Assembly (NCBI GenBank): GCA_041653675.1
Contig: JBAZEY010000002.1
Location: 12,315-76,314 of the forward strand
From: Patescibacteria group bacterium
GTDB taxonomy: Bacteria; Patescibacteriota; Patescibacteriia; XYB2-FULL-38-15
Length of the DNA stretch: 64,000 nucleotides
Reading direction: 5' to 3'
Below, piece after piece: positions 6,003-48,161 of the stretch. A model generated the notes under the pieces. That model was not told where the DNA came from. It ran no database searches and was given only the letters and a program-made list of their open reading frames with translations. The first letter of the stretch is position 1; every line of letters starts with the position of its first letter. The position numbers and the translations under genes were made by a program.

Positions 6003-7871
6003 ATGTTTCAATTTTTAAATAAAAAATCAAAAAAATTCGCCAAGGCCTGGGAAGAAAAAAAACCGGCGGAACTTAAGGCTGAAGAAAAAATACTCTACGC
6101 CCTGGCGGGAAAAATCCAGAATGCGCGGCTCGCGCGGCCAGGAGAAGTTTTAATTTCTGAAATGGAAAAAAATCGCATCAGAGAAAATTTTTATCATAAA
6201 TATTTTGATCTTGTCGGCTCTGAAACACCTGCTCAAAATTTAATAAAGCAGGAAAATGGAGCTAAAGAATCAAGAAAGGAAACTTCTATGACTCTGCCTT
6301 GGAAATTTAGTAAAACGACCCTCGCCTGGGCTGGCGCAGCTGTAATCGTTTTGGCCTTAGCTCTTGGAGTTTATTTTACCCGCGGGCCTGGCGGAACAAA
6401 CGGAATTTTTAACGGAGCTCTCGCGGCGCATCTTTCCGTAGCTGACGGGCAAGTAGAAACCTGGAATGGAAGCGATTGGCAAAAAATAGAAACTGGAACT
6501 ACTATTGCCAGCCAGTCGCAAATCCGAACCGGAGAAAATAGTAAAGCAGTTTTAGAATTTGACGAAGGCAGCGCTCTTCGGCTAGACGAAAACACTCATA
6601 TAATTTTAGAAGAGATCAACAACAAAAATATTTCTGTCGCGCAAGTAGTTGGCGAAACTTATAGCCGCGTTAATAAAACTTCCGGCTTAACTTATAAAGT
6701 AAAATCTGGAGATGCGGAAACAACAGCGCTCGGCACAGCTTTTGGTGTAGCCACGGAAAAATCAAACTGGGTTAAAAAAGGTGAGAAAAAAGTTATTGTT
6801 AAGGTTGTGGAAAGCAAAGTAAAAGTAAAAATCGTAAAAAATGACGAGACATTAGAAAAAGAAGTGAGCGAAGGTGAAGAATTAATTGTTGATATGACAA
6901 AACCGATTGAAGATATTGCGAAAAAAATCCCTTTACCAAAAGAAGAAACCGCGCAAGATGGATTTTATGTCTGGAACCGAACAGAAGACAGCGAAAAATC
7001 TTATCCTCTAGGAGTTCTCTCTGACGTTACTCCGCCGGAAATAAATATCTCCGAACCTTTGGACGGAATTGAAACAGAACTCTACCGTGTTGCTGTCCGC
7101 GGCGCGACCGAAGCCGGAGCAAAAGTTTTTGTGAACGGAACTCTGACGGAAAATAAAGATGGATCCTTCGAAAAAATCATTGATCTAAAAGTTGGCGCGA
7201 ATACGGTTGAAGTGAAAGCAAAAGATGATTCTGGAAATGCTACTACTAAAAAAATTACCGTAACAAAAAAAGGCGAAGTCGTTCAAGCTTCACCGCTCTA
7301 TCTCAAAGGCTGGGCTGATTCCGAGGGCATACATCTTTCATGGTCACTTTCGGGAATTACCGCGCCAAAAGGATTTAAGCTTGTAAAATCACTCACGGCT
7401 TATCCGACTTACCCTGGCGATTCAGCGGTTTATCTAAATCCTGATACCAGAAGCTATCTCTGGCAAATCAATGATGGCAAAACTTGGCACTTCAGAGTTT
7501 GCGTCTACGAAGGCGGCGCCTGCGGTACTTACAGTAATGATTTAAAAATAGTTGCAAAATCAACTAGCACTTCTAGCAATGAAATTTACGGAACTCTTGC
7601 CCTGACCGGTTGGATAAAGACAGGAAAAATAGTCGTTCTCTCCTGGGCGCTTACCGGCAATTCTCCTTACGGATACAAAATAGTAAAATCTCTTGAACCA
7701 AATCCCGTTTATCCCGGCAATGAATATGTTTATCTTTCTTCGCCGGACATGAAAGGCAGCTATACCTGGGACGTTGGAGAGGCTGGCACCTACCATTTCC
7801 GCGTTTGCGCTTATAACGGCGGAGGTGGATGTGTCTTTTACAGCAACGACTATTCGGTAACCGTTCAATAA
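6003..7871 (+). CDS. Anti-sigma factor (single TM, FecR-like domain, large extracytoplasmic region with two repeated Cys-pair domains)
   Basis: Sits immediately downstream of the ECF sigma. TM helix LAWAGAAVIVLALALGVYF. FecR-like block (AVLEFDEGSALRLDENTHI). Two repeats ending WHFRVC.YEGG.CG.YSND. Confidence 0.6.
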   Translation: MFQFLNKKSKKFAKAWEEKKPAELKAEEKILYALAGKIQNARLARPGEVLISEMEKNRIRENFYHKYFDLVGSETPAQNLIKQENGAKESRKETSMTLPWKFSKTTLAWAGAAVIVLALALGVYFTRGPGGTNGIFNGALAAHLSVADGQVETWNGSDWQKIETGTTIASQSQIRTGENSKAVLEFDEGSALRLDENTHIILEEINNKNISVAQVVGETYSRVNKTSGLTYKVKSGDAETTALGTAFGVATEKSNWVKKGEKKVIVKVVESKVKVKIVKNDETLEKEVSEGEELIVDMTKPIEDIAKKIPLPKEETAQDGFYVWNRTEDSEKSYPLGVLSDVTPPEINISEPLDGIETELYRVAVRGATEAGAKVFVNGTLTENKDGSFEKIIDLKVGANTVEVKAKDDSGNATTKKITVTKKGEVVQASPLYLKGWADSEGIHLSWSLSGITAPKGFKLVKSLTAYPTYPGDSAVYLNPDTRSYLWQINDGKTWHFRVCVYEGGACGTYSNDLKIVAKSTSTSSNEIYGTLALTGWIKTGKIVVLSWALTGNSPYGYKIVKSLEPNPVYPGNEYVYLSSPDMKGSYTWDVGEAGTYHFRVCAYNGGGGCVFYSNDYSVTVQ

Positions 7872-8905: not shown

Positions 8906-8934
8906 TTGACAAAAGCGGACCCGTGTTCTAAAGT
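8906..8934 (+). promoter_or_regulatory. Promoter TTGACA-17-TAAAGT for module at 8958
   Basis: gaTTGACAAAAgcggacccgtgttcTAAAGT, with AAAGGAGGG 5 nt before the ATG. Confidence 0.4.
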
Positions 8935-8957
8935 TAAAAACCGGAAAGGAGGGAAAA

Positions 8958-9413
8958 ATGGACAACGAGGAAGAAGGGACGTTTGACGTAGAAGGACGGC
9001 GGGCGTTCGTTAGCCAACAGCTCCAAGATTACCGGATGTGTAACCCCGAGATTCGGCAAATCATCTACAAAATCTGGGGGCTGAACTCAATCCCCCAACG
9101 CCATGATTTCCTGGCGGCGATGTGGCCCCTCTTTCTAGGGCTGAAAAGCGTCACGAAGCTCTTGGGCGAACTCCCGATCATCCAAAAAGCCTCGGCCGAC
9201 CAGACCTGGACTGAACTCTACGAAGCTCCCGACAACGCTTTGGATGGTGAAGACTTCGATGAATTCCGCATCCCCATCGAAGTCGAATTCAAGATGAATC
9301 TGGCAGTATCGGTTAAGTCACCCGACGTCAAGCGGCGGGTCGAGCGTAACTTCGCCATGATTCTCCGGATGATCCAGATCGAACGGGGCGCGAAACCCAA
9401 CTCGTCCGTCTAG
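8958..9413 (+). CDS. GC-rich hypothetical protein (151 aa), self-contained module
   Basis: Strong SD, GC-rich codons and its own terminator. No recognisable family. Confidence 0.5.
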   Translation: MDNEEEGTFDVEGRRAFVSQQLQDYRMCNPEIRQIIYKIWGLNSIPQRHDFLAAMWPLFLGLKSVTKLLGELPIIQKASADQTWTELYEAPDNALDGEDFDEFRIPIEVEFKMNLAVSVKSPDVKRRVERNFAMILRMIQIERGAKPNSSV

Positions 9414-9432
9414 CCAAGGAGGAACACGTACC

Positions 9433-9468
9433 GAGAGGCACCCCACGGGGCAGCCTCTTTTTTATTAT
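9433..9468 (+). terminator. Intrinsic terminator (gaggcaccccacggggcagcctc + T8)
   Basis: Stem-loop followed by TTTTTTATT. Confidence 0.55.
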
Positions 9469-9514
9469 TGAATGAGCGCCAATTACACGAAGTATTTTTC
9501 TAATATTCTTTCCC

Positions 9515-9543
9515 TTGACAAAAAAGATAAAATGATTTAAGAT
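9515..9543 (+). promoter_or_regulatory. Promoter TTGACA-17-TAAGAT for module at 9572
   Basis: ccTTGACAAAAaagataaaatgattTAAGAT, followed by the AAAAGGAGG SD. Confidence 0.45.
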
Positions 9544-9571
9544 TTTTAGTTCCCTCGAAAAGGAGGATGCG

Positions 9572-10039
9572 ATGGAAACCATGAATAGCACGAAGCGCCA
9601 GAATTCCACTCGGAGCCAATACGACAATCTGTACGCTACCTTGCAAATGGAGGAATCTGCCGTGGCCGCGTGGCTTGAAGATACGCGGAACGGACTGATC
9701 GATATCTTCGGAGCGAATCCCGGCGAGGTCTGGGAAAATCTCGCTTTTCTCTACTATCTCTGGGTGCTCATCGATACTGTCCAGCAGATGCGCGAACGGA
9801 GGATGTTGCCCCAAATCAGCGATGACGTCTATGGACAGGCGTCGTCGGAATGGGACGACAAGGAAGCGCGAAGCATGGTGAAGCGAGAGATTCTCCATGC
9901 CCTGAACACCTTCCGGCACAATCTTTTCGCCAACTTCGAAGCACTGCTTCAAGGCAGCCCGGTCGAGAACGGCGGCGCCGAGGCGTACTGCCGAGGCGCG
10001 TTCACCAAGCTGCTCCGCATGGTCAGACTCTCTCAATGA
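9572..10039 (+). CDS. GC-rich hypothetical protein (155 aa), self-contained module
   Basis: SD gaaaaggaggatgcg-ATG. Shares a bidirectional terminator with the convergent gene downstream. Confidence 0.5.
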   Translation: METMNSTKRQNSTRSQYDNLYATLQMEESAVAAWLEDTRNGLIDIFGANPGEVWENLAFLYYLWVLIDTVQQMRERRMLPQISDDVYGQASSEWDDKEARSMVKREILHALNTFRHNLFANFEALLQGSPVENGGAEAYCRGAFTKLLRMVRLSQ

Positions 10040-26996: not shown

Positions 26997-27731
26997 CTAC
27001 TTGTTGAAGTACGCAAGCGTCCGCTTGGTCCAGTATTCGAGCCGCCGCGCCGCGTCTTCATCAATGATCTCGACCACTCTCGCCCAGTGGAAGGCGACGA
27101 GATCACCGACTGAAACGCGCGGAAAAAGCAGCGGATCGCGCGGGACGGAAACATTCCTCTCTTCTTCCTCGAGTTCGGACAAAATCCTGCCGCCTTGGCG
27201 CCGCAATGACTTTGCCGAAACGGTGAGCGTCCCGTTCTTTCCGACGCCGACTACTCTTCCCCAGCCGATGCGGCAAAGATCCTGGCCAACCGAACCCCGC
27301 TCCACCTGGCCGGAGAGTCCGCCAATTACCATGACATGGAAGCTGTGATGCGGCCGGTGCTGATAGTGAACGCGGGCGGCCGCTTCTTTCGCCGCTGGCG
27401 CAGCCATCTTGCCTTCGGCCGCCAGGTTGAGAATCATCGTCTTTAAATCCTCGGGTCGGACGCGGTTCAAAAGGTCGTTCCCAATCCAGTAGGCGTCAAC
27501 TACCCGCAAATCAAGCCAGTCCTCGATACTGTTTGAGGCCGCGATCAACTTCAGGTAGGCCGCCGCCGCGGTAAACTGCTCGAGCAGTTTTCTTGCCTGC
27601 CCGTCACTCACCTTTTTTTTAGTGGTGAGATACTGGTAGAGCTTACCCTTCTCGCTGCCCCGCGGCCCGCAAAGACCGAGTTCGTTCGGATAGAGGGCGT
27701 AACGCGCCGCCCGTGCGTAAATCTTTCCCAT
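26997..27731 (-). CDS. GC-rich protein with C-terminal HypC/HupF-like domain (VGDLVAFHWARVVEIIDEDAARRL) fused to an unknown N-terminal domain
   Basis: Strong SD GGGAGGGAGGAATAAA-ATG 2 nt after the hypC stop. Minus-strand terminator at ~26948-26985. The C-terminal motif matches the HypC GDxVLVHVGFAI..ID.EEA pattern, but the protein lacks the N-terminal Cys2. Confidence 0.4.
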   Translation of the reverse strand: MGKIYARAARYALYPNELGLCGPRGSEKGKLYQYLTTKKKVSDGQARKLLEQFTAAAAYLKLIAASNSIEDWLDLRVVDAYWIGNDLLNRVRPEDLKTMILNLAAEGKMAAPAAKEAAARVHYQHRPHHSFHVMVIGGLSGQVERGSVGQDLCRIGWGRVVGVGKNGTLTVSAKSLRRQGGRILSELEEEERNVSVPRDPLLFPRVSVGDLVAFHWARVVEIIDEDAARRLEYWTKRTLAYFNK

Positions 27732-35824: not shown

Positions 35825-35941
35825 TCAGCCCTTCTGAGTCTTCTTGACCCTCTTCCTGGTGGTGGTCTTCGGGGCCTCCTTCGCCCGAACCTTGATCTCG
35901 CTGATCTTGGCGCTGTCGAGCACGCCCTTGCACTTCGACAT
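35825..35941 (-). CDS. Possible independently translated 38-aa Lys-rich peptide (MSKCKGVLDSAKISEIKVRAKEAPKTTTRKRVKKTQKG) embedded in-frame at the 3' end of the YkgJ-like gene
   Basis: An internal AAAGGAGGT sits 6 nt upstream of an in-frame ATG. The same SD style is used by every other module. Confidence 0.25.
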   Translation of the reverse strand: MSKCKGVLDSAKISEIKVRAKEAPKTTTRKRVKKTQKG

Positions 35942-36604
35942 GATTCGACCTCCTTTGCAGTCAAAGAAAGGAACAAACGACCCCAACTTCCTGTGCTGTT
36001 TTTCTGTCCTGCACCTCCCTAAGGTAAGATACCGGTTGGGCCCTTCCGGGAATCGGGTGACTTCGTCAACCACCCGATAGCAACGCAGTATCTCTCGCAA
36101 TAAGACGGCGGGCACTGAGGAAATTATAGCACAGATCTCTCCGCAAAGACAACTGAGCCGACCGTTGTCTCTGAGCGTGCGCACCAACCGACAATTCTCG
36201 TGCAAGGCCCAAACTACTAGACCTTCAGCAGTTGTCTCGAGCCCAGCTGGATAGATGTGACAAACAAATGGTCGTTTGCCATACAGACGGCACCTTCGCC
36301 CCAGCCGACACGCCAACGGACAGTCGGGATGACGAACCCCCAAATCGTATCCGCCGTCGGACTTCTTCGGCAGGCAGTGTATGAAATCGGCCCGACGATT
36401 GAGCTGCAAGATTGGCACACCCGCACGATAAAGCCTTCCAACTTCCGGCGGCAAAAGCCAAATGAAGCCCTGGCAATCCGGATCTCGACAACCAACGCAA
36501 TCCAAACCGTAACGACGGTAAAGAAGGTCAAAAGCCTCGCTGATTTGGCCGATCGCCTTCAAGGTGAGGGCTGATTGCTTTTCTTTGTTGGCTCTACTCT
36601 TCAT
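35825..36604 (-). CDS. YkgJ/UPF0153-type Cys-cluster (putative Fe-S/Zn) protein with Lys-rich C-terminal tail; translationally coupled to rSAM gene (ATGA overlap)
   Basis: CVGCRDPDCQG followed by C..L...CRLYGKRPFVCHIYP, which resembles the YkgJ C...C.IY..RP..CR.YP signature. GC-rich. Confidence 0.45.
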   Translation of the reverse strand: MKSRANKEKQSALTLKAIGQISEAFDLLYRRYGLDCVGCRDPDCQGFIWLLPPEVGRLYRAGVPILQLNRRADFIHCLPKKSDGGYDLGVRHPDCPLACRLGRRCRLYGKRPFVCHIYPAGLETTAEGLVVWALHENCRLVRTLRDNGRLSCLCGEICAIISSVPAVLLREILRCYRVVDEVTRFPEGPNRYLTLGRCRTEKQHRKLGSFVPFFDCKGGRIMSKCKGVLDSAKISEIKVRAKEAPKTTTRKRVKKTQKG

Positions 36605-37944
36605 CTGACCACCTCGTCAAGGGCATGAACTTGGAGCAGGCGGCTGACGAACAAACGGATTTCAACCGCTTCGATTTCGTCAGCGAATTGCCGAACCAGG
36701 TCAACCTCGTTGAACTCGCTCTGGCCCAAGATACACTGAGCCACCCTCAAAGCCGTCGGATCCAGTTTCACGGTCTGGTAACGAGTAACCAAGTATTTAT
36801 TCGGATACTTGGTCAGCAGCTTCATGTACCGATTCGGCCTGAGACGACGGTAAACTGTCGGATATCTCTCGGCCAACTTAGCCGATGTCCGGCGACGCGG
36901 CAGGCGGATCGGCGGCTTGCGCATTCCGCGTACGGCATAATCGACGCAAAACTGATTTGAGCAGTTCACGTCGACCTTACAACCGCAAGTACACTCAAGC
37001 AGCAATGGACAATCCCTACATGGTTCGGTGACCCAAGCCAAGTCGCGATAAACGTCAAGAGACCGGCTGTTCCAAATCTCGGCCAGAGTTTCTTCCAGCA
37101 CGTTGCCGAAAATGAGTTGGGACTGATTGCAGATGCGAAACTCGCCGCGAGGGTTGATCGCCCCGAACGAAACGCCAACTCCGCAGTTCGACGTGAGACC
37201 TTCTCGGATCAGTCTTTCGTCGAGGCAGTACGGTATCGCAGTCCCAAAGCCGACCCGGCCGCCGAGTTCAGGAAAATCTCGGCGAGCCTGAAGCATTTGA
37301 CCGACCGCGACGCGGAACTCTTCAAGGCTGGGCTTAAGCTTGGGGTGACTGGCATTCTTCGCCCCCAGCCCGCCGTCTTCGTAGCGATCCACGTAGATGG
37401 ATTCCATGCCGAGACTGACCGCGATCTTGATGATCCCGTATATCTGATCAAAGTTGTACCCAGTCAACACTGGAATGCAGCGCACATCGTGTCCCGCTTC
37501 GACGTAGGATCTGATAGTTTCAAGAGTCCTATGAAATCCTCCAGGAATTCCTGTGTGCATCTCGTGCGTCTGCGGATTATCGCCATGAAGGGGCACACCA
37601 AAACAGGCGATCTTGGGTGAAACTCCCCTCATTACAATGAGGCCGTTCGTGACGATAGTCACCGACGAAGTCGGGCTAAGCAAATTCACATAACGGTTGA
37701 TCCGCTCCACGGGAACGAGACTGGGTTCTCCTCCGATGAGATAGACGTGAGGAATTTGATCCTCTGCCACTCTCTCCACGATGCTGTCTACGACCGAGGG
37801 ATCGAAGTGTCTATTCCTCTCCGGGTTGTAACAAAAAATGCACCTGCTATTGCAAGCGTAACTCATCTCAATGTGGACCAGGTGCGGAATAGAGCCGTGC
37901 CGAACGCGGATAGCCCTAACCATTTTTTTACTGCGTGGCTTCAT
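36601..37944 (-). CDS. Radical SAM enzyme with C-terminal SPASM/twitch-like Cys cluster and ~100-aa basic C-terminal extension
   Basis: CNSRCIFC (Cx3Cx2C) near the N-terminus. C-terminal CRDCPLLLECTCGC plus further Cys residues. A 2-nt gap after the RNHCP gene. Confidence 0.75.
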   Translation of the reverse strand: MKPRSKKMVRAIRVRHGSIPHLVHIEMSYACNSRCIFCYNPERNRHFDPSVVDSIVERVAEDQIPHVYLIGGEPSLVPVERINRYVNLLSPTSSVTIVTNGLIVMRGVSPKIACFGVPLHGDNPQTHEMHTGIPGGFHRTLETIRSYVEAGHDVRCIPVLTGYNFDQIYGIIKIAVSLGMESIYVDRYEDGGLGAKNASHPKLKPSLEEFRVAVGQMLQARRDFPELGGRVGFGTAIPYCLDERLIREGLTSNCGVGVSFGAINPRGEFRICNQSQLIFGNVLEETLAEIWNSRSLDVYRDLAWVTEPCRDCPLLLECTCGCKVDVNCSNQFCVDYAVRGMRKPPIRLPRRRTSAKLAERYPTVYRRLRPNRYMKLLTKYPNKYLVTRYQTVKLDPTALRVAQCILGQSEFNEVDLVRQFADEIEAVEIRLFVSRLLQVHALDEVVR

Positions 37945-37946
37945 GG

Positions 37947-38267
37947 CTAGTTCCTCGTCCCGGCGACAACTCTCGTAGATAGTTGCACTACGAGGGCCAT
38001 GTCATCCGTGGGAGATGTCTTGTTGTTCTTGATCATCCCGCATTTTTGACAACGATGCACAATTGCGTACTTGCCACCCTTAATTTTTACGCCAATCGGC
38101 TCCATCATCCCCCGGCATTCGGAAAGTCTGTCGCCAGGGAACGCATCAACGTGTTTGCTCCACAGACATCGCGGACAGTGGTTGGTGTAGCCATCACCCC
38201 TGACCTTGGCTCCACAATTTTGGCACCGAAAGTCTTCTTGACGGCGTTCGAATCTTTTTGTCTCCAC
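37947..38267 (-). CDS. RNHCP-domain zinc-ribbon protein (GTG start)
   Basis: The YTNHCPRCLWSKH motif plus CQNCG and CQKCG pairs. SD GAAGGAGGAG 5 nt before the GTG. Confidence 0.55.
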   Translation of the reverse strand: METKRFERRQEDFRCQNCGAKVRGDGYTNHCPRCLWSKHVDAFPGDRLSECRGMMEPIGVKIKGGKYAIVHRCQKCGMIKNNKTSPTDDMALVVQLSTRVVAGTRN

Positions 38268-38310
38268 CTGCTCCTCCTTCTTCTATGCAGATTTTCAAAG
38301 AACGTTGAGT

Positions 38311-38339
38311 CAACTTAACGCAAGTTTAACTCTGAGTCA
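38311..38339 (-). promoter_or_regulatory. Promoter TTGACT-17-TAAGTT for the RNHCP-rSAM operon, next to GTTGAgTCAAC palindrome
   Basis: Read on the minus strand. The palindrome lies at ~38303-38316. Confidence 0.4.
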
Positions 38340-38422
38340 AGCAGTAAAAATAACCCATTTCTCCAGCCCTTGATTTTTAAACCCATTTGTGCTAAATTAA
38401 ATACACAATTGTTCATCAAAAT

Positions 38423-38853: not shown

Positions 38854-39111
38854 ATGAAAAAGGACACCCATCCAGAATATTATCCAAAAGCAAAGGTGAC
38901 TTGCGCCTGCGGCAATTCTTTTACTGTTGGCTCGACCACGAAGGAAATCAAGGTTGAGTTATGTTCTGCCTGCCATCCATTTTACACTGGCAAACAAAAA
39001 CTCGTTGACTCGGCGAGACGCGTCGAGAAATTCAAAGAAAAAATGGAAAAGAAGGCAGCCATTTCCGCGACGAAAAAAGAAAAGAAGCCGAGAGCGAAAA
39101 AAACAAAGTAG
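38854..39111 (+). CDS. rpmE: 50S ribosomal protein L31 with Lys-rich C-terminal extension
   Basis: HPEYY...CACG...[13 protein letters not shown] motif. Confidence 0.85.
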
Positions 39112-39187
39112 TTATTCCAATCATAAAAAACATGGTGACATTTTTGTTATCATGTTTTTATGTTAGAATAAACTAATAAATTTAATT

Positions 39188-40225
39188 ATGATTCCGGAAA
39201 TCATTAAAGCTGAAGAAAAATTCAAGGAACTTGAGGCCGAGCTCGCTCGCCCCGAGGTGGTTTCTGATCGGGAAAAGTTAAAAAAAGTTTCCCAAGAATA
39301 TAGTGATTTGAAAGAAGTAATGGAAAAAATAAATAAATTCCACGCGCTGGAAAAAGCCGCGGTTGAAACGGAAGTTATCGCCAAACAAGATGTTCCCGAA
39401 ATGGCCGCGATTGCTAAAGAAGAATTGGAAAAAATTCGGCAAGAAAGATCAGTGCTCGAAGCGGAAATCAAAGAAGAGCTGACGCCGAAAGATCCGCTGG
39501 ACAAAAGAAATATTATTGTGGAAATCCGCGCCGGTGCCGGCGGCGACGAAGCCGCGCTTTTTGCCGCGCAACTTTTCCGAATGTATTCCAGATTTGCTGA
39601 ACGAAAAGGTTGGCAGGCAAGGTTAATTTCCGCCAACCGCACCGATCTTGGCGGGTTTAAAGAAATTATTTTTTCAGTTATTGGCAAAGGCGCGTGGGGA
39701 AATTTAAAATTTGAAAGCGGTGTGCATCGCGTCCAGCGCGTTCCGGATACGGAAAAAAGCGGCCGCGTCCATACCTCCACCGCTTCCGTCGCCGTCCTTC
39801 CCGAAACTGAAGAAATTGATATTAAAATTGAACCAAAAGATTTGCGCATTGATACCTTTTTATCCGGCGGCCACGGCGGGCAGAGCGTGCAAACGACATA
39901 TTCCGCGGTGCGCATTACTCATATTCCGTCAGGCCTTGTTGTCGCCTGCCAAGACGAACGCTCCCAGCAGCAAAACCGCGAAAAAGCCATGCAGGTTTTG
40001 CGTTCCCGCCTTTTTGTAATGGAGCAAGAAAAACGCCAGGCGGCGGAAGTCGCGGCGCGGCGTTCACAGATTGGTTCGGCAATGCGCGCGGAAAAAATCA
40101 GAACATACAATTTTCCTCAAGACCGCGTTTCCGACCATCGCGTCAAAGAAAGCTGGCACAATATTAATAACGTAATGGACGGTGAGCTAGATCAAATTAT
40201 TGAAGTACTAAAAAAGGAAATATAA
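39188..40225 (+). CDS. prfA: Peptide chain release factor 1
   Basis: GGQ motif ([12 protein letters not shown]), PxT-region architecture and overall length. Confidence 0.9.
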
Positions 40226-40239
40226 AAAATTAAAAAATA

Positions 40240-40265
40240 ATCCGGCCGCAAGGCCGGTTTTTTGA
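40240..40265 (+). terminator. prfA intrinsic terminator ccggccgcaaggccgg + T-run
   Basis: Perfect 6-bp GC stem followed by TTTTTTG. Confidence 0.6.
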
Positions 40266-40280
40266 TATAAATTTTGACAT

Positions 40281-40592
40281 AAAAAAAGAGTCGGTCGAAC
40301 GAGGTGTTCGACCGACGGGCACAACGCGAAACGTAGCGGTGTGCAAAGAAGGGTGACCTCCGTACCCGCTAAAAGCGGATTTGGAGGATCGAAAACGCGG
40401 GGGAGATTTCAGCCCACCTGCATAACAGGCAAGCCGGGTTCCTGCTGGCCACCCCTGGGTCCTTCCTCCACGAGATCATCCGCGCTTCAACGCGCGGCTT
40501 CCACTCGAGGACTCCGGATTTGGGATGAGAAAAAATTACCCACGACGCCAGTGCGCTGCCGGCATCAACCGAACAGGACTCCCCTTTACCCT
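40281..40592 (-). ncRNA. Candidate ~300-nt GC-rich noncoding RNA transcribed from the minus-strand half of the palindromic divergent promoter, ending at a minus-strand intrinsic terminator (hairpin 40290-40316 + T7)
   Basis: No convincing ORF in any frame. Promoter TTGACA-17-TAAAGT on the minus strand. Terminator gtcggtcgaacacctcgttcgaccgac-TCTTTTTTT on the minus strand. Multiple internal GC hairpins. Confidence 0.35.
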
Positions 40593-40599
40593 GCACTGC

Positions 40600-40664
40600 A
40601 CTTTAACATAATTATCAAAATTTGTCAAGAGTCTCTTGACAAATTCATCTTTTTGTAATATTAT
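40600..40664. promoter_or_regulatory. Divergent promoter pair sharing a perfect 27-bp palindrome AATTTGTCAAGAG-T-CTCTTGACAAATT (40619-40645); plus-strand TTGACA-17-TATTAT, minus-strand TTGACA-17-TAAAGT
   Basis: Both -35 hexamers lie within the palindrome arms. Spacers are exactly 17 nt. Confidence 0.5.
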
Positions 40665-40788
40665 AAAAACATCAAAACAGGGTGGCCTTGTGTTCTTGGC
40701 GCGTGCCAGAAACGCAAGGAAGGTGGCCCTAAGCCTCGGCCTGATGGACAGGACGAGTTGATAATAGGGAAGGTAGTGGAGGACAGAG

Positions 40789-41004
40789 ATGTCGAGTAGT
40801 GTTTTCTGGGACGACGGTACAAGGCTCTCAGCGGACGGTGTCCCCATCATCCCCGATGGTGCGGGACCGCGCGAGATTTCACAGCGCCGCAGGACGAGCA
40901 GACAGCTCGACGACTTCTTCCCCGACTGGGAGGAGGAACACCGCCGGAACGAGGAAGCCAGGCGGCGCGACCGCGACCGCCGTCGTGATGGCGTCCGCTG
41001 CTAA
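40789..41004 (+). CDS. GC-rich 71-aa Arg/Asp-rich small protein
   Basis: SD GGAGGA 6 nt before the ATG. Strong terminator downstream. About 125-nt structured leader. Confidence 0.45.
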   Translation: MSSSVFWDDGTRLSADGVPIIPDGAGPREISQRRRTSRQLDDFFPDWEEEHRRNEEARRRDRDRRRDGVRC

Positions 41005-41162
41005 CACCAGCCCCAGCCCACCCACCAACAACGTGAGAACGCGCGAGCAATCGCTCGTCCTCCGTCCGAATTTACGCCGCCCCTCCCGGACTCGGCGTAA
41101 GAGCCCGCGTAGCGGATCGCAGGGGACATGAGTCCCGCCTCCCTCCCCGCTGCCGGGCGACC

Positions 41163-41222
41163 AGCCCGTGGATTGTTTTGGAGACCTCCCCTCCTCCGAA
41201 CAATCCACGGGCTCTTTTTTAT
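41163..41222 (+). terminator. Intrinsic terminator (agcccgtggattgtt ... aacaatccacgggct + T-run)
   Basis: 15-bp perfect stem followed by CTTTTTTATT. Confidence 0.6.
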
Positions 41223-41391
41223 TATCAAGCGAGTGAGAGAAATGAACTTATTCATTTCCGAGCGAGCGCAGATAACACGGAGTATTATCAAGCGAGTGAG
41301 AGAAATGAACTTATTCATTTCCGAGCGCCCGGCCTCGCCGAAGACGGCAAGTCGAGGCGGGAGCGCAGATAACGCGCAGTATGTTATAATG
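41223..41391 (+). promoter_or_regulatory. Tandem 42-bp direct repeats each containing 20-bp palindrome GAAATGAA-CTTA-TTCATTTC, plus repeated AGCGCAGATAAC(A/G)CG(G/C)AGTAT motif, ending in extended -10 TGTTATAAT just upstream of prmC
   Basis: Units at 41223-41264 and 41286-41327 are identical. Centre-to-centre spacing is 63 bp. TGTTATAAT at 41383-41391. Confidence 0.5.
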
Positions 41392-41396
41392 ATCCT

Positions 41397-42257
41397 ATGA
41401 CTATCCAAAAATATTTAATTTGGGCGATAAAAACTTTACAAAAAAATAAAATCGTCTCCCCAGCTCTCGATGCCGAGGTTCTTTTATCTTTTGTTATAAA
41501 AAAACCAAAAGAATTTTTATACGCGCATTCTGAAAAAAAATTAACTGCGGTACAAATTTCAAAGTTTAAAAAACTCATTATCTGCCGAGCAAAGCACGAG
41601 CCGGTCGCCTATATTATTAGCCACAAATATTTTTACGGCTTGGATTTTTTTGTAAATAAAAATGTTTTGATCCCCCGCCCGGAAACGGAAATATTAGTTG
41701 AAACCACGATAGAGAAAAAACCAACCACGATTATTGACGTCGGAACGGGCAGTGGCGCCATTGCCGTAACGCTTGCACATAATTTACCCAATGCAAAAAT
41801 TTTCGCCACAGAAATCTCTTCGGCCGCTGCCAAAGTAGCGCAAAAAAATGCACGACATCACAAAACGAAAATTACATTTTTGCACGGCAATTTATTGCAA
41901 CCGTTTTCAAATCTAAAATCAAATATCACAAATCTTAAATCTTTGACGATAGCTGCCAATCTCCCCTATCTCACCACAAAACAATGGCAAAAATCCCAGC
42001 TAGAAATAAAAAAATACGAACCGCGGACGGCACTCGACGGCGGCGCGGACGGTTTAAAATATTATCGCGAACTTTTACAACAAATAGAATTGCTAATCAC
42101 TAGCCACAAATTATCCATTACTTCCGTTTTAGAAATTGATCCTTCCCAAAAAAAATCTATTGCGAAATTAATCAAACGCCGTTTTCCCTCCGCGAAAATA
42201 GAAATAAAAAAAGACCTCGCCGGCCGAGATCGAATCGTTATTTTTAAAATAAATTAA
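41397..42257 (+). CDS. prmC: Release factor glutamine N5-methyltransferase PrmC/HemK
   Basis: GTGSGAIAV motif I and NLPY (NPPY-variant) motif. Confidence 0.8.
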   Translation: MTIQKYLIWAIKTLQKNKIVSPALDAEVLLSFVIKKPKEFLYAHSEKKLTAVQISKFKKLIICRAKHEPVAYIISHKYFYGLDFFVNKNVLIPRPETEILVETTIEKKPTTIIDVGTGSGAIAVTLAHNLPNAKIFATEISSAAAKVAQKNARHHKTKITFLHGNLLQPFSNLKSNITNLKSLTIAANLPYLTTKQWQKSQLEIKKYEPRTALDGGADGLKYYRELLQQIELLITSHKLSITSVLEIDPSQKKSIAKLIKRRFPSAKIEIKKDLAGRDRIVIFKIN

Positions 42258-43354
42258 AATTCAATTTCTGTTCCAATTGGCACCACTTCAACCCAAGTCA
42301 CTCCCGGGTTGAATTTTATTTCCGCACCGCCTTCATCATAAAATTTCGTCCGATCTTCGCTCGTCTCTTTCTGCCAAGTTCCGTCTATCCGAACGCCATC
42401 TTGAAAAATAATTGCCTCACCAACGCCAGTTGTTTCAATATCTTTTCGCCCCACTCCGTCCAAAACTACCATCTGAGTAAACTGCACGGCAATATTTTTT
42501 GCCCGAACTTCCTCGCCATTTCTGTCTTGCTGAATTACGCCGGCTTGATATCTTAAATAATCGTTGCTTTCGCGGTCATATTGCCAGCCGACTTCATAAG
42601 TTTTTGTGGAAAAATAAACTTTAATTCTTTTTTCTTCTTCGGGGCGCGACTCTTCTGTCGCTTCATCTTTAAACTGCCAGGGCGTGAAACTTTTTATCTC
42701 GCCATCTTTCGCCGCAAAAGCTTCATTCAACAGTCCCGTTGATGTGTAAAGATTGTGTGGCATATATCTTGCTTTTGATCGCCAGAAAAATATGCCGTTT
42801 GCAAATTCATTCAAATCCCAAAAATCATATTGCGGAATCAAACGCAGCGCCTCTGGACTTCCTCCCGAATGAACATAAAGCGCACCAAATTCTTCGGCCC
42901 AATCAAGAAAATACGGCCGCGCGCTCCGAACTGGTCCGATTTCCGAAACTTCTCCGTTCGCCGCGTAAACCGCTAAAAATCTTGTGATGCCGGCCTCGGC
43001 TAAAGTTTCATAAACCAAATTAGCGCGGGCAACTCCGGAAAGCGGCCGAGCATCAATCATGTTTTCAATTTGCACGGCAAAAAGCGGCGGATTGATTTTT
43101 GTTTCATCTTCCATTTCCGCTCCATCAATCAATCGGTGAAATCCAGGGAGAGATTCTTCTTCACTCTGTTCAATATTCTGCTGTGTTTTTTCTTTTGAGA
43201 AAAAATCTAAAAAGGAAGTCCGGGACAGAAGAAAATATCCGCCAATAGCAACCACAAAAACTGAAATTAAAAGCAAAGAAACAACCAGCCAGATCGGCGG
43301 TTGTTTCTTCACAAAAGCAATTATTCTCAAAAATAATTCCTTTATAAATTTCAT
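42254..43354 (-). CDS. DUF3048-domain protein (YerB-like)
   Basis: N-terminal TM. The QIENMIDARPLSGVARANLVYE block is typical of DUF3048. Confidence 0.5.
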   Translation of the reverse strand: MKFIKELFLRIIAFVKKQPPIWLVVSLLLISVFVVAIGGYFLLSRTSFLDFFSKEKTQQNIEQSEEESLPGFHRLIDGAEMEDETKINPPLFAVQIENMIDARPLSGVARANLVYETLAEAGITRFLAVYAANGEVSEIGPVRSARPYFLDWAEEFGALYVHSGGSPEALRLIPQYDFWDLNEFANGIFFWRSKARYMPHNLYTSTGLLNEAFAAKDGEIKSFTPWQFKDEATEESRPEEEKRIKVYFSTKTYEVGWQYDRESNDYLRYQAGVIQQDRNGEEVRAKNIAVQFTQMVVLDGVGRKDIETTGVGEAIIFQDGVRIDGTWQKETSEDRTKFYDEGGAEIKFNPGVTWVEVVPIGTEIEF

Positions 43355-47047: not shown

Positions 47048-47179
47048 AATTAGAAAAATTAGATTGCGCTTTAATTATATCACAAAAATTTGGATAAAAA
47101 AACGGCCCCGCTTCATTTCCTTTGCTTTGTGAGCATCAGATTTGAAGCGAGGCCACGATCTACCTCCTACTTGAGCGCC

Positions 47180-47752
47180 CTAGACGGCGAGCTTGCGGAG
47201 GACGAGCCACCCGAAGTTCGGGCTGAAGTCGCGGTCGAGGCAGTTCAGGCCCAAGTCGCGCTCGCCGCCGTGCCGGCGCGCGACCGGCGCGTACCAGACG
47301 CCGTCCTGAATCTGCCAACGGGCCGTGATGATGAGCGGATGGTCGAGCTGGATATCCGGGTGGGCGGCGATGAACTCCATCGCCCGGCGCAAACCGCCAA
47401 GCAACCGGTAGCCGAGTTTCTCGAGTTCCGCGAAGGCCTCTTCGCCGGTCATCATCCGGTCGAAGTGGTGCTCGTAGACTTCCCAGTAGTGCTCGTCGGG
47501 AGCCACCGGCTCCAAGGGACAGTTCGCCTCGTTGAAGTCGGGGTTGACCCAGTCCTGCTTGCACATGTCGAGCAGCCGCCGGAAATTGATGACCGGCAGA
47601 CTTGCGGCCAACGCGCCCTTGAGCGCCAACTCCAACTCGAAGTTGTGGATGATCCAATACTGAGCCATCTCGGGCGTAATTCCCCGCGGCAAATTCCGAA
47701 TCACCGCCGCCGCAAGTTCCGCGAACTGATCCGTTTTGATCTTCTTTCCCAT
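47180..47752 (-). CDS. GC-rich hypothetical protein (190 aa), self-contained module
   Basis: SD AAGGAGGAAACGA-ATG, promoter ~125 nt upstream and a minus-strand terminator near 47100-47150. Two longer ORFs overlap it on both strands. Confidence 0.5.
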   Translation of the reverse strand: MGKKIKTDQFAELAAAVIRNLPRGITPEMAQYWIIHNFELELALKGALAASLPVINFRRLLDMCKQDWVNPDFNEANCPLEPVAPDEHYWEVYEHHFDRMMTGEEAFAELEKLGYRLLGGLRRAMEFIAAHPDIQLDHPLIITARWQIQDGVWYAPVARRHGGERDLGLNCLDRDFSPNFGWLVLRKLAV

Positions 47753-47885
47753 CGTTTCCTCCTTGGCTTATCCTGGTCCATCTCTTCCGAGAGGCAGGAC
47801 TTACCAAAAGCGGCTGGAACCCATTCCCAGCCTTGTTTTGAAGGTCATAAAACCGCCAAAAGAAAGCAAGGATTTTCAACACTTT

Positions 47886-47914
47886 ATAATAGCCCACTTT
47901 TGCCATTTTGTCAA
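47886..47914 (-). promoter_or_regulatory. Promoter TTGACA-17-TATTAT (minus strand) for 47180..47752
   Basis: gagagGTTGACAAAAtggcaaaagtgggcTATTAT read on the minus strand. Confidence 0.4.
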
Positions 47915-48161
47915 CCTCTCTCCCCCTTGTCCCGGTTAGAGGTCCTCGGCATAATTTTTTTAGAAAAAAAATTATGCTCAGTTTTAATAAGCATAGAAGT
48001 CGCCAAATCTCCCACCCTGAAAACCACCTAAAATAAAGACAAGACAGACCTCTAACGGGACTTGTTTTCATAAAAACATTATGTTATAATAACTTAATAA
48101 ATATTAGCGAATTTCACCTCGTTTTCGCCTCTGGCGGGAGGGGTTAAGTTTTTTTGTTATT

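Follow-up and report, generated by a model that had tools for sequence, protein, structure and literature searches.

The DNA analysed here (the window) comprises 64,000 nucleotides from a Patescibacteria group bacterium (assembly GCA_041653675.1, contig JBAZEY010000002.1, positions 12,315 to 76,314), and the locus under study is an island at 40280-41220 that separates prfA, which encodes peptide chain release factor 1, from prmC, which encodes the release-factor methyltransferase. The GC content of the island is 55-67%, against approximately 40% across the window. The host is a member of Candidatus Falkowbacteria (Patescibacteria); the relatives of its PrfA at 79-97% identity come from Falkowbacteria/Patescibacteria metagenome-assembled genomes. 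The original prediction, made from the letters of the window, had placed the island between two genes that are normally co-transcribed, and comparison agrees that it is an interruption, as more distantly related Patescibacteria (L016, L017) have prfA and prmC side by side. Within the island, two units diverge from a perfect palindrome: a GC-rich unit on the minus strand that lacks a conserved open reading frame (ORF) and, on the plus strand, a leader followed by a gene for an arginine-rich protein of 71 amino acids (Table 1). We consider it probable, from sequence comparison, that two independent promoters stand back to back here, the leftward one serving a new accessory structured RNA and the rightward one a small-protein mRNA with a regulatory-looking leader. 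The leftward promoter would transcribe a GC-rich, multi-branched RNA of approximately 311 nucleotides (nt; ~40593 to 40283) that ends just before the prfA terminator, and the rightward promoter would transcribe an mRNA made up of the structured leader, the 71-aa orphan gene, a conserved 3′ untranslated region (UTR) and a terminator.

Loci for comparison were collected by a genome scan with PrfA (L003-L082), by exact look-ups of the window's own PrfA (L001-L002), of homologues of the 71-aa ORF (L083-L086) and of further PrfA homologues (L111-L122), and by a metagenome scan with the leader motif (L087-L110, n = 24). Approximately 12 of the 24 leader-motif loci (MKWU..., JGIcombined..., L094 and L108) were chance matches to an unrelated repeat family and were discarded. 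A metagenome scan with a terminator-region pattern returned no matches. These loci contain seven distinct homologues of the minus-strand RNA, all at the same spot and converging on the prfA terminator (L003, L006, L097, L088, L116/L117, L110 and L105), and a variant RNA in L118 in addition to these full-length homologues. The homologues are 66-84% identical to the window copy, compared with 55-63% identity at four-fold degenerate sites of the adjacent prfA. Because the RNA is more similar than these sites, the comparison indicates that it is under purifying selection. Indels between the homologues measure 1, 2, 5, 7 and 8 nt, with some larger inserts; as they are not multiples of three, no reading frame is maintained on either strand. 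We therefore rejected a coding role for the minus-strand unit, in which neither a 16-codon AUG ORF nor a UUG ORF downstream of GGAGG is conserved. A conserved protein frame in homologues would have contradicted the original prediction of an ORF-less GC-rich unit that folds into hairpins, and none was seen.

Conservation of structure also indicates that the unit encodes an RNA. The RNAalifold consensus contains 98 pairs in 15 helices, with standard pairs in 96.9% of pair cells and compensatory double changes at 19 pairs. Column shuffles gave 6.9 ± 2.0 compensatory pairs, and none of 500 shuffles reached either the observed count or the observed covariation score. In a control in which the 3′ partners were slid by 1-3 columns, pairing was 37-44% and compensatory pairs numbered 0-6. 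The single-sequence fold of the window RNA reached -143.7 kcal/mol (z = -5.0 versus dinucleotide shuffles). The stem of the terminator (helix 15), which the original prediction had described as an 11-bp hairpin followed by a T-run on the minus strand, lies at 40316-40290 and is paired in 100% of cases, with three pairs changed on both sides. Helix 12, an almost invariant hairpin, pairs a CCUCC that resembles an anti-Shine-Dalgarno sequence with a GGAGG that resembles a Shine-Dalgarno sequence, and it is also present in the L118 variant. The RNA does not overlap prfA, on which it converges, ending 57 nt from the prfA stop codon. We placed its 5′ end approximately 7 nt downstream of the -10 box and its 3′ end at the U-run of the terminator. 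A search of the window and the loci with nhmmer profiles of the RNA and of the leader found no copies beyond those already known.

Table 1 Features of the prfA-prmC interval and its flanks, in window coordinates
Feature	Position	Strand	Basis
Candidate structured non-coding RNA gene, ~311 nt	40283..40593	-	Homologues, consensus structure, covariation, indels not multiples of three, no Rfam match
RNA outer helix GGGU/ACCC	40591-40588 with 40354-40351	-	Consensus fold mapped to window
RNA helix GGGGAG/CUCCCC	40584-40579 with 40405-40400	-	Consensus fold mapped to window
RNA helix UCCUGUU.GGU/…AGCAGGA	40578-40568 with 40449-40440	-	Consensus fold mapped to window
RNA hairpin with invariant 7-nt loop CAGCGCA	40543..40567	-	Helix 4, 100% paired; loop the same in 7/7 sequences
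RNA branched arm	40527-40450	-	Consensus fold mapped to window
RNA hairpin of variable length	40436-40410	-	Consensus fold mapped to window
RNA almost invariant hairpin GAUCCUCC-AA-AUCCGC-loop-GCGGGU-AA-GGAGGUC	40355..40390	-	Helix 12: 13 pairs, 10 unvarying
RNA 3′ hairpin	40343-40320	-	Consensus fold mapped to window
RNA intrinsic terminator	40283..40316	-	11 perfect pairs (40316-40306 with 40300-40290), 5-nt loop, U7 tail TCTTTTTTTA
Predicted promoter of RNA	40628..40600	-	-35 TTGACA (40628-40623), 17-nt spacer, extended -10 TGtTAAAGT (hexamer 40605-40600); 10/12 consensus positions plus TG
27-bp perfect palindrome AATTTGTCAAGAG-T-CTCTTGACAAATT	40619..40645	both	13-nt arms, 100% complementary
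Predicted promoter of small-protein unit	40636..40664	+	-35 TTGACA, 17-nt spacer, -10 TATTAT; 11/12 consensus positions
Structured 5′ leader with invariant blocks GGUGGCCCUA and UAGGGAAGG, two hairpins and GGAGG Shine-Dalgarno sequence	40671..40788	+	Alignment of 20 sequences, per-sequence folds
71-aa Arg-rich small protein (type A), lineage-restricted orphan	40789..41004	+	Homologues, frame kept, third-position excess
3′ UTR of small-protein unit: AACGUGAGAAC, hairpin, CUCCGUCC, then terminator	41005..41221	+	Inverted-repeat scan; homologue sequences read directly
prfA (peptide chain release factor 1), left flank	39188..40225	+	Pfam PCRF and RF-1 domains
prfA intrinsic terminator CCGGCCGCAAGGCCGG	40242..40263	both	U-rich runs on both strands; terminator scan lists + and -
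Two tandem palindromic REP/MITE-like copies, ~65 nt (TATTATCAAGCGAGTGAGAGAAATGAA…TTCATTTCCGAGCGAGCGCAGATAAC…AGTAT)	41220..41382	+	Repeat scans
prmC (release-factor methyltransferase), right flank	41397..42257	+	Pfam PrmC_N and MTS domains

On the plus strand, the original prediction had drawn a promoter, a leader and a 71-aa Arg-rich ORF. This layout holds. No other element of the island is as conserved as the leader, which occurs once per locus in every close relative. A helix AGGGU.GCC/GGU.GCCCU encloses its first hairpin, the sequence of which is wholly different in L005, L007 and L120; the second hairpin covaries, with C-G replaced by U-A in 8 of the 20 aligned sequences. The leader also offers two mutually exclusive pairings, AGGG/CCCU and CCCUA/UAGGG. 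It precedes two unrelated types of ORF, type A of 64-71 aa and type B of 86-122 aa with the motif C-x4-CGTILR…C-x2-H. The leader looks like an undescribed cis-regulatory RNA. A weak group-II-D1D4-3 match recurs on it, at 13.8 and 16.7 bits where the gathering score is 32, which is uninformative because the two leaders concerned are nearly identical.

The 71-aa ORF, which starts with an ATG preceded at 6 nt by the GGAGG Shine-Dalgarno sequence, has protein homologues at 74, 65 and 57% identity. Its frame, start and length are kept in eight loci, indels comprise whole codons, and codon differences number 906 at the third position versus 618 and 625 at the first and second. By these measures it is a genuine conserved small-protein gene. 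The family yielded 17 matches at E < 0.001 among 1.84 billion representatives, approximately ten of which are proteins of 67-82 aa. No Pfam, PHROG or PADLOC match was found for the protein, which is hydrophilic and rich in arginine, and its AlphaFold2 model, of low confidence (mean predicted local distance difference test score of 69.6), contains short N-terminal β elements and a C-terminal helix. Residues 3-25 (VFWDDGTRLSADGVPIIPDG; 40789-40860) match repeated stretches, 4-12 per protein, in long proteins of 226-1075 aa; we take this segment to resemble a single YD/RHS-type repeat. Downstream of the gene, the conserved block of the 3′ UTR reads AACGUGAGAG...CUCUCCGU in relatives, and the unit ends in a terminator with a 15-bp stem (41163-41177 with 41199-41213) followed by U6.

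The two units differ in their distribution. Within approximately 4-5 kb of prfA, the RNA is absent from L004, L005, L083/L084, L089, L102, L111, L113, L114, L119 and L120-L122, in which PrfA is 85-97% identical to that of the window. Since only some close relatives carry it, the RNA is, judged from this locus, an accessory rather than a housekeeping element, and within the loci sampled its family is confined to a subclade of Candidatus Falkowbacteria. The RNA is also modular. In the L118 variant, the 5′ GUAGGGUAAAGGGGAGUCCU, the CUGAAAGCUCCCC strand and the CCUCC/GGAGG hairpin are retained, as are the 3′ hairpin and the terminator, whereas the interior has been swapped for a different, shorter structured domain. 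At the position of the RNA, L007 carries a different RNA of approximately 250 nt (6145-6398, minus strand; z = -7.0) that shares with the window RNA only the last ~65 nt, with the 3′ hairpin and the terminator.

This modularity, together with the constant company of the small-protein unit, might suggest that the RNA and the Arg-rich protein form a functional pair, such as a type I-like toxin-antitoxin system or an RNA-protein complex, within a fast-evolving, recombining array of cassettes. Every locus with the RNA has a leader/small-ORF unit within 1.5 kb, and at the protein end, too, modules are exchanged: the window and L110 have near-identical leaders followed by the two unrelated ORF types. 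The tails of the proteins are basic and resemble RNA-binding sequences, and the composition of the island is distinct from that of the surrounding genome. However, the small-ORF unit occurs without the RNA in at least ten loci, RNA type and ORF type are not specifically matched, and the association itself was seen in a biased sample, since several loci were fetched through the leader motif. No convincing complementarity between the RNA and the mRNA was found, the best being a single unconserved 14-nt repeat at 86% identity, and the protein, being hydrophilic, is unlike type I toxins. Nor does it match PADLOC or PHROG, and no hits were obtained in phage or viral contigs: blastn gave no match among 50,697 phage records, and the RNA and leader motifs had no matches in IMG/VR. 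A phage or mobile origin was rejected on these grounds. We regard such a pair as a rather unlikely account of the locus.

The palindrome from which both units diverge consists of two back-to-back -35 hexamers, the AAATT starts of their spacers and a 7-nt centre. The original prediction had reported this palindrome, with perfectly complementary arms, and divergent near-consensus promoters with 17-nt spacers; both are present and, in the case of the promoters, conserved in homologues. By a rough estimate (~64000/4^13), a perfect palindrome with 13-nt arms is expected by chance approximately 0.001-0.01 times per 64 kb. In a promoter scan of 39000-42500, the two promoters were the best and third-best promoter-like sites, and both have the sigma-70-type arrangement of TTGACA-like and TATAAT-like hexamers 16-18 bp apart. 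The form of the RNA promoter, TTGACAAA with a 17-nt spacer and TGnTAnAGT, is kept in eight loci (the window, L003, L006, L097, L088, L110, L105 and L118), and the promoter of the small-protein unit is kept in all 18 leader loci whose upstream sequence was displayed. Both promoters would be expected to fire, with predicted start sites at ~40593 on the minus strand and ~40671 on the plus strand, approximately 78 bp apart, and -10 boxes at 40600-40605 and 40659-40664. Each promoter's A/T-rich spacer probably occupies the place expected for an UP element of the other.

The original prediction had further proposed that the palindrome is an operator, at which a dimeric regulator would bind the two TTGACAAATT half-sites and co-repress or co-activate both transcripts. 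The perfect 13-nt arms in the window invite this idea, L110 also has 13-nt arms around a different centre, and AAATT beyond the hexamer is kept in most homologues. The spacing of the half-sites speaks against it. From one -35 hexamer to the other the gap is 7 nt in the window, 4 nt in L006, 5 nt in L003, L097 and L088/L116, and 8 nt in L110 and L105; it is 7 nt in L007, where the different RNA stands, and 47 nt in L118, which has the variant RNA. The centre varies freely (GAGTCTC, GGATCTCC, GGGGG, GGGG, CCCCC and others), so that the two -35 hexamers and the adjoining AAATT are all that is conserved among loci with the RNA, and the arms coincide exactly with these hexamers and the starts of the spacers. 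In addition, five loci without the RNA (L004, L083, L089, L102 and L120) have the right arm by itself, immediately downstream of the prfA terminator, where it is the promoter of the small-protein unit; loci that lack the RNA thus have the TTGACAAATT promoter singly. In L105, the RNA promoter diverges instead from the promoter of prs, a gene that by sequence inspection resembles that for ribose-phosphate pyrophosphokinase. Further, TTGACAAAT(T) occurs at unidirectional promoters, those of the small-protein unit and of a third cassette (L003, L005, L006 and L007), the latter starting with TTGACAAA(T/C) in the same four loci. No regulator gene was found in the island among the genes and domain annotations of the window. 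Because the gap and the centre vary and the right arm stands alone, an operator of fixed geometry is unsupported, and we consider control by a dimeric regulator improbable. The palindrome is better read, as part of the anatomy that we consider probable, as a by-product of two independent sigma-70 promoters of the same type (TTGACAAATT, 17-nt spacer, -10 box) standing back to back.

Might the minus-strand unit instead act in cis? Its complex fold directly before a terminator is reminiscent of the expression platform of a riboswitch, and its convergence on prfA suggests an antisense regulator that reaches prfA by terminator read-through. However, no ORF lies downstream on the minus strand in any homologue, no riboswitch family matches, and the RNA and prfA do not overlap. 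Transcripts reading through would at once meet the prfA terminator, which is kept in all homologues and, from its U-rich runs, can act bidirectionally, and prfA itself is present and conserved in relatives that do not have the RNA. Such cis action, be it as an orphan riboswitch, as an attenuator or by antisense regulation of prfA, is thus very improbable.

We then compared the RNA with known families. In Rfam 15 at the gathering threshold, no family in a search of the whole window matched the RNA, and at E ≤ 10 (40150-41450, L110 and the RNA region of L105) only scattered matches far below threshold appeared, none of them shared between homologues within the RNA. The Rfam search suggested by the original prediction thus revealed no known RNA. 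ARAGORN found no tRNA or transfer-messenger RNA (tmRNA) in the window. The original prediction had also remarked on a short stretch, GCAGGAACCCGGCUUGCC, that loosely resembles the 3′ strand of the RNase P helix P4. The stretch is present, and the likeness proved superficial. RNase P RNA is comparable in size and has a GC-rich fold, and the local string ACAGGAACCCGGCUU in the window RNA is like its P4 3′ strand, conserved region V (CR-V). However, the RNase P-like CGGCUU reads CGGUUC, CGGUCC or CGGUUU in homologues, and in the fold it is the 5′ side of helix 10, a local hairpin that covaries. The P4 pairing between conserved region I (CR-I, GGAAAGUCC) and CR-V (ACAGAAnnCGGCUUA) was not found in the RNA, which has no CR-I partner; the GGGGAGUCCUG that it contains pairs instead with CUCCCC and CAGGA, and the RNAalifold consensus contains no long-range pseudoknot of the P4 type. 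RNase P RNA was therefore rejected, there being no match to the covariance models RF00010/RF00011, even at E ≤ 10, in three homologues. A disguised housekeeping RNA, whether a divergent or reduced RNase P RNA (as ACAGGAACCCGGCUU hints), 6S RNA, signal recognition particle (SRP) RNA or tmRNA, would suit a strongly folded, GC-rich molecule of ~310 nt with a strong promoter, but is extremely unlikely given that none of these models matched at E ≤ 10 in three homologues, that the RNA is patchily distributed and missing at this locus in many relatives whose PrfA is 85-97% identical, and that its interior domain is replaced in L118.

It is credible, from these comparisons, that the RNA represents a previously undescribed family of a known kind, the orphan structured bacterial RNA. 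A search of the literature on non-coding RNA in Falkowbacteria found nothing relevant. A blastn-short search of the RNA against the window for antisense targets gave only chance-level matches of 10-12 nt. Because no complementary target was found, and because the fold is elaborate and has its invariant nucleotides in loops and junctions, our guess is that the RNA is stable and acts in trans through its folded shape, as a scaffold or decoy that binds protein, rather than by antisense pairing.

Several points weigh against these interpretations. Action as a protein-binding scaffold or decoy is a guess that we hold with low confidence. The transcript ends are predictions from sequence. The consensus structure derives from only seven distinct full-length sequences of one narrow clade, two of which are nearly identical, so that the covariation counts are partly non-independent and the shuffle control is not a probability. 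The absence of the RNA from relatives refers to the ~4-5 kb around prfA, and a copy elsewhere in those genomes is possible. The swapped interior in L118 and the different RNA in L007 could mean that the interior is not constrained in the way of a single conserved machine. Finally, in the window and in L110 the symmetry extends to the 3 nt that flank each -35 box (GAG/CTC and GGA/TCC), a feature that we cannot fully attribute to promoter function.

The gap between prfA and prmC in the Falkowbacteria clade measures 1.2-3 kb and contains GC-rich units in varying series, every one of them equipped with a TTGACA-type promoter and an intrinsic terminator of its own. We considered whether the gap is a general insertion hotspot and rejected this, as more distant Patescibacteria (L011 and L012) hold ordinary, unrelated genes there. 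A third GC-rich cassette, which is not in the window, occupies positions 7177-7806 in L003, 7728-8323 in L005, 7162-7830 in L006, 8254-8895 in L007 and 1020-1668 in L085. Its promoter reads TTGACAAA…TAAAYT, and all five of these loci except L085 share the leader AAGGUGCGGAUAGAAAGGACUUGCC…GGCAAG. The product, 166-185 aa long with an acidic tail, is an orphan protein for which Pfam gave no match. The prs gene, identified by reading of the sequence alone, lies between prfA and prmC in L005 (6067-7100), L007 (6434-7480), L105 (~5830 onward) and L008 (6067 onward), and there is none at this place in the window; its GC content is high in L005 and L007 and lower in L008.

Between the small-protein unit and prmC lie the two copies of an element that resembles repetitive extragenic palindromic (REP) sequences or miniature inverted-repeat transposable elements (MITEs), the second with a GC-hairpin insert of approximately 33 nt. 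The same element is also found directly after intrinsic terminators in L007, L118, L083 and L121. The start of prmC (41382-41399) has an extended -10 box (TGTTATAAT) that ends exactly 6 nt before the ATG and no Shine-Dalgarno sequence, as in L083, L085 and L121, and from this arrangement prmC looks leaderless. Other GC-rich islands (52-55%) in the window, which is otherwise of ~40% GC, are found at 8906-10039, 26997-27731, 35825-38340 and 47160-47914. Most of them stand behind a near-consensus TTGACA-17-TAnnnT promoter and have products without a Pfam, PHROG or PADLOC match. The unmatched proteins are encoded at 8958-9413 and 9572-10039 on the plus strand and at 47160-48071 on the minus strand. 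The island at 26997-27731 encodes a DUF6390 protein, and an operon running on the minus strand from 38267 to 35825 encodes an RNHCP protein, a radical SAM/SPASM protein and a 259-aa orphan.

The arrangement of the locus can be compared with several known systems. Bidirectional promoters, as described by Warman et al. (bioRxiv 10.1101/2020.01.31.928960; see also PMC12825309), are pseudo-symmetrical, with key elements that coincide on opposite strands, and the binding of one RNA polymerase excludes the other. As in that account, promoter elements on opposite strands of the island give symmetry to the DNA and divergent transcription from a short A/T-rich region, and the symmetry needs no dedicated regulator. 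Such promoters reportedly have overlapping -10 elements and start sites ~18 bp apart. In the window, by contrast, the -35 hexamers stand back to back, 4-8 bp apart across homologues, with separate -10 boxes and widely spaced starts, and the pair therefore differs from the bidirectional promoters of that account. The tisB/istR-1 locus is a divergently transcribed type I toxin-antitoxin system in which a small RNA stands opposite the mRNA of a small protein, the latter preceded by a long leader. In the window, likewise, a small RNA and a long-leader small-protein mRNA diverge from one compact control region. However, there is no conserved complementarity between the window RNA and the leader, the protein, being hydrophilic and Arg-rich, is no membrane peptide, the RNA is highly structured and five times the size, and the two units occur independently.

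A further comparison is with large orphan structured RNAs, of which the raiA, ROOL, GOLLD, OLE and HEARO motifs are reported from the comparative-genomics surveys of Breaker and Weinberg. Like these, the window RNA appears to be a stand-alone molecule of ~300 nt with many covarying helices, in which invariant nucleotides lie mainly in loops and junctions. It differs from them in that it matches none in Rfam 15, is found in one Falkowbacteria subclade at one genomic position, and has a replaceable interior.

To our knowledge, bacteria of the candidate phyla radiation (CPR) are almost unexplored for non-coding RNA. The locus offers a well-delimited candidate RNA gene, with promoter and terminator signals, covariation and no described family, as well as an even more conserved mRNA leader as a second undescribed conserved RNA element. 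It also illustrates that two promoters standing back to back are enough to produce a perfect palindrome, however striking, and once so read the palindrome becomes ordinary. It is conceivable, if quite unlikely, that the RNA is the first member to be seen of a new class in CPR bacteria, made up of large accessory RNAs with complex folds. Such an RNA would be a ribozyme or, with neighbouring orphan proteins, a ribonucleoprotein subunit, with a conserved frame (outer helices, CCUCC/GGAGG hairpin and 3′ hairpin) around an exchangeable interior, and would belong to a hypervariable prfA-prmC cassette array in which RNA and ORF modules are exchanged and which might serve, for example, in conflict or in interaction with a host. 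If the RNA were catalytic or part of a ribonucleoprotein, it would represent a new class of large bacterial RNA; otherwise, it would be one more lineage-specific orphan small RNA.

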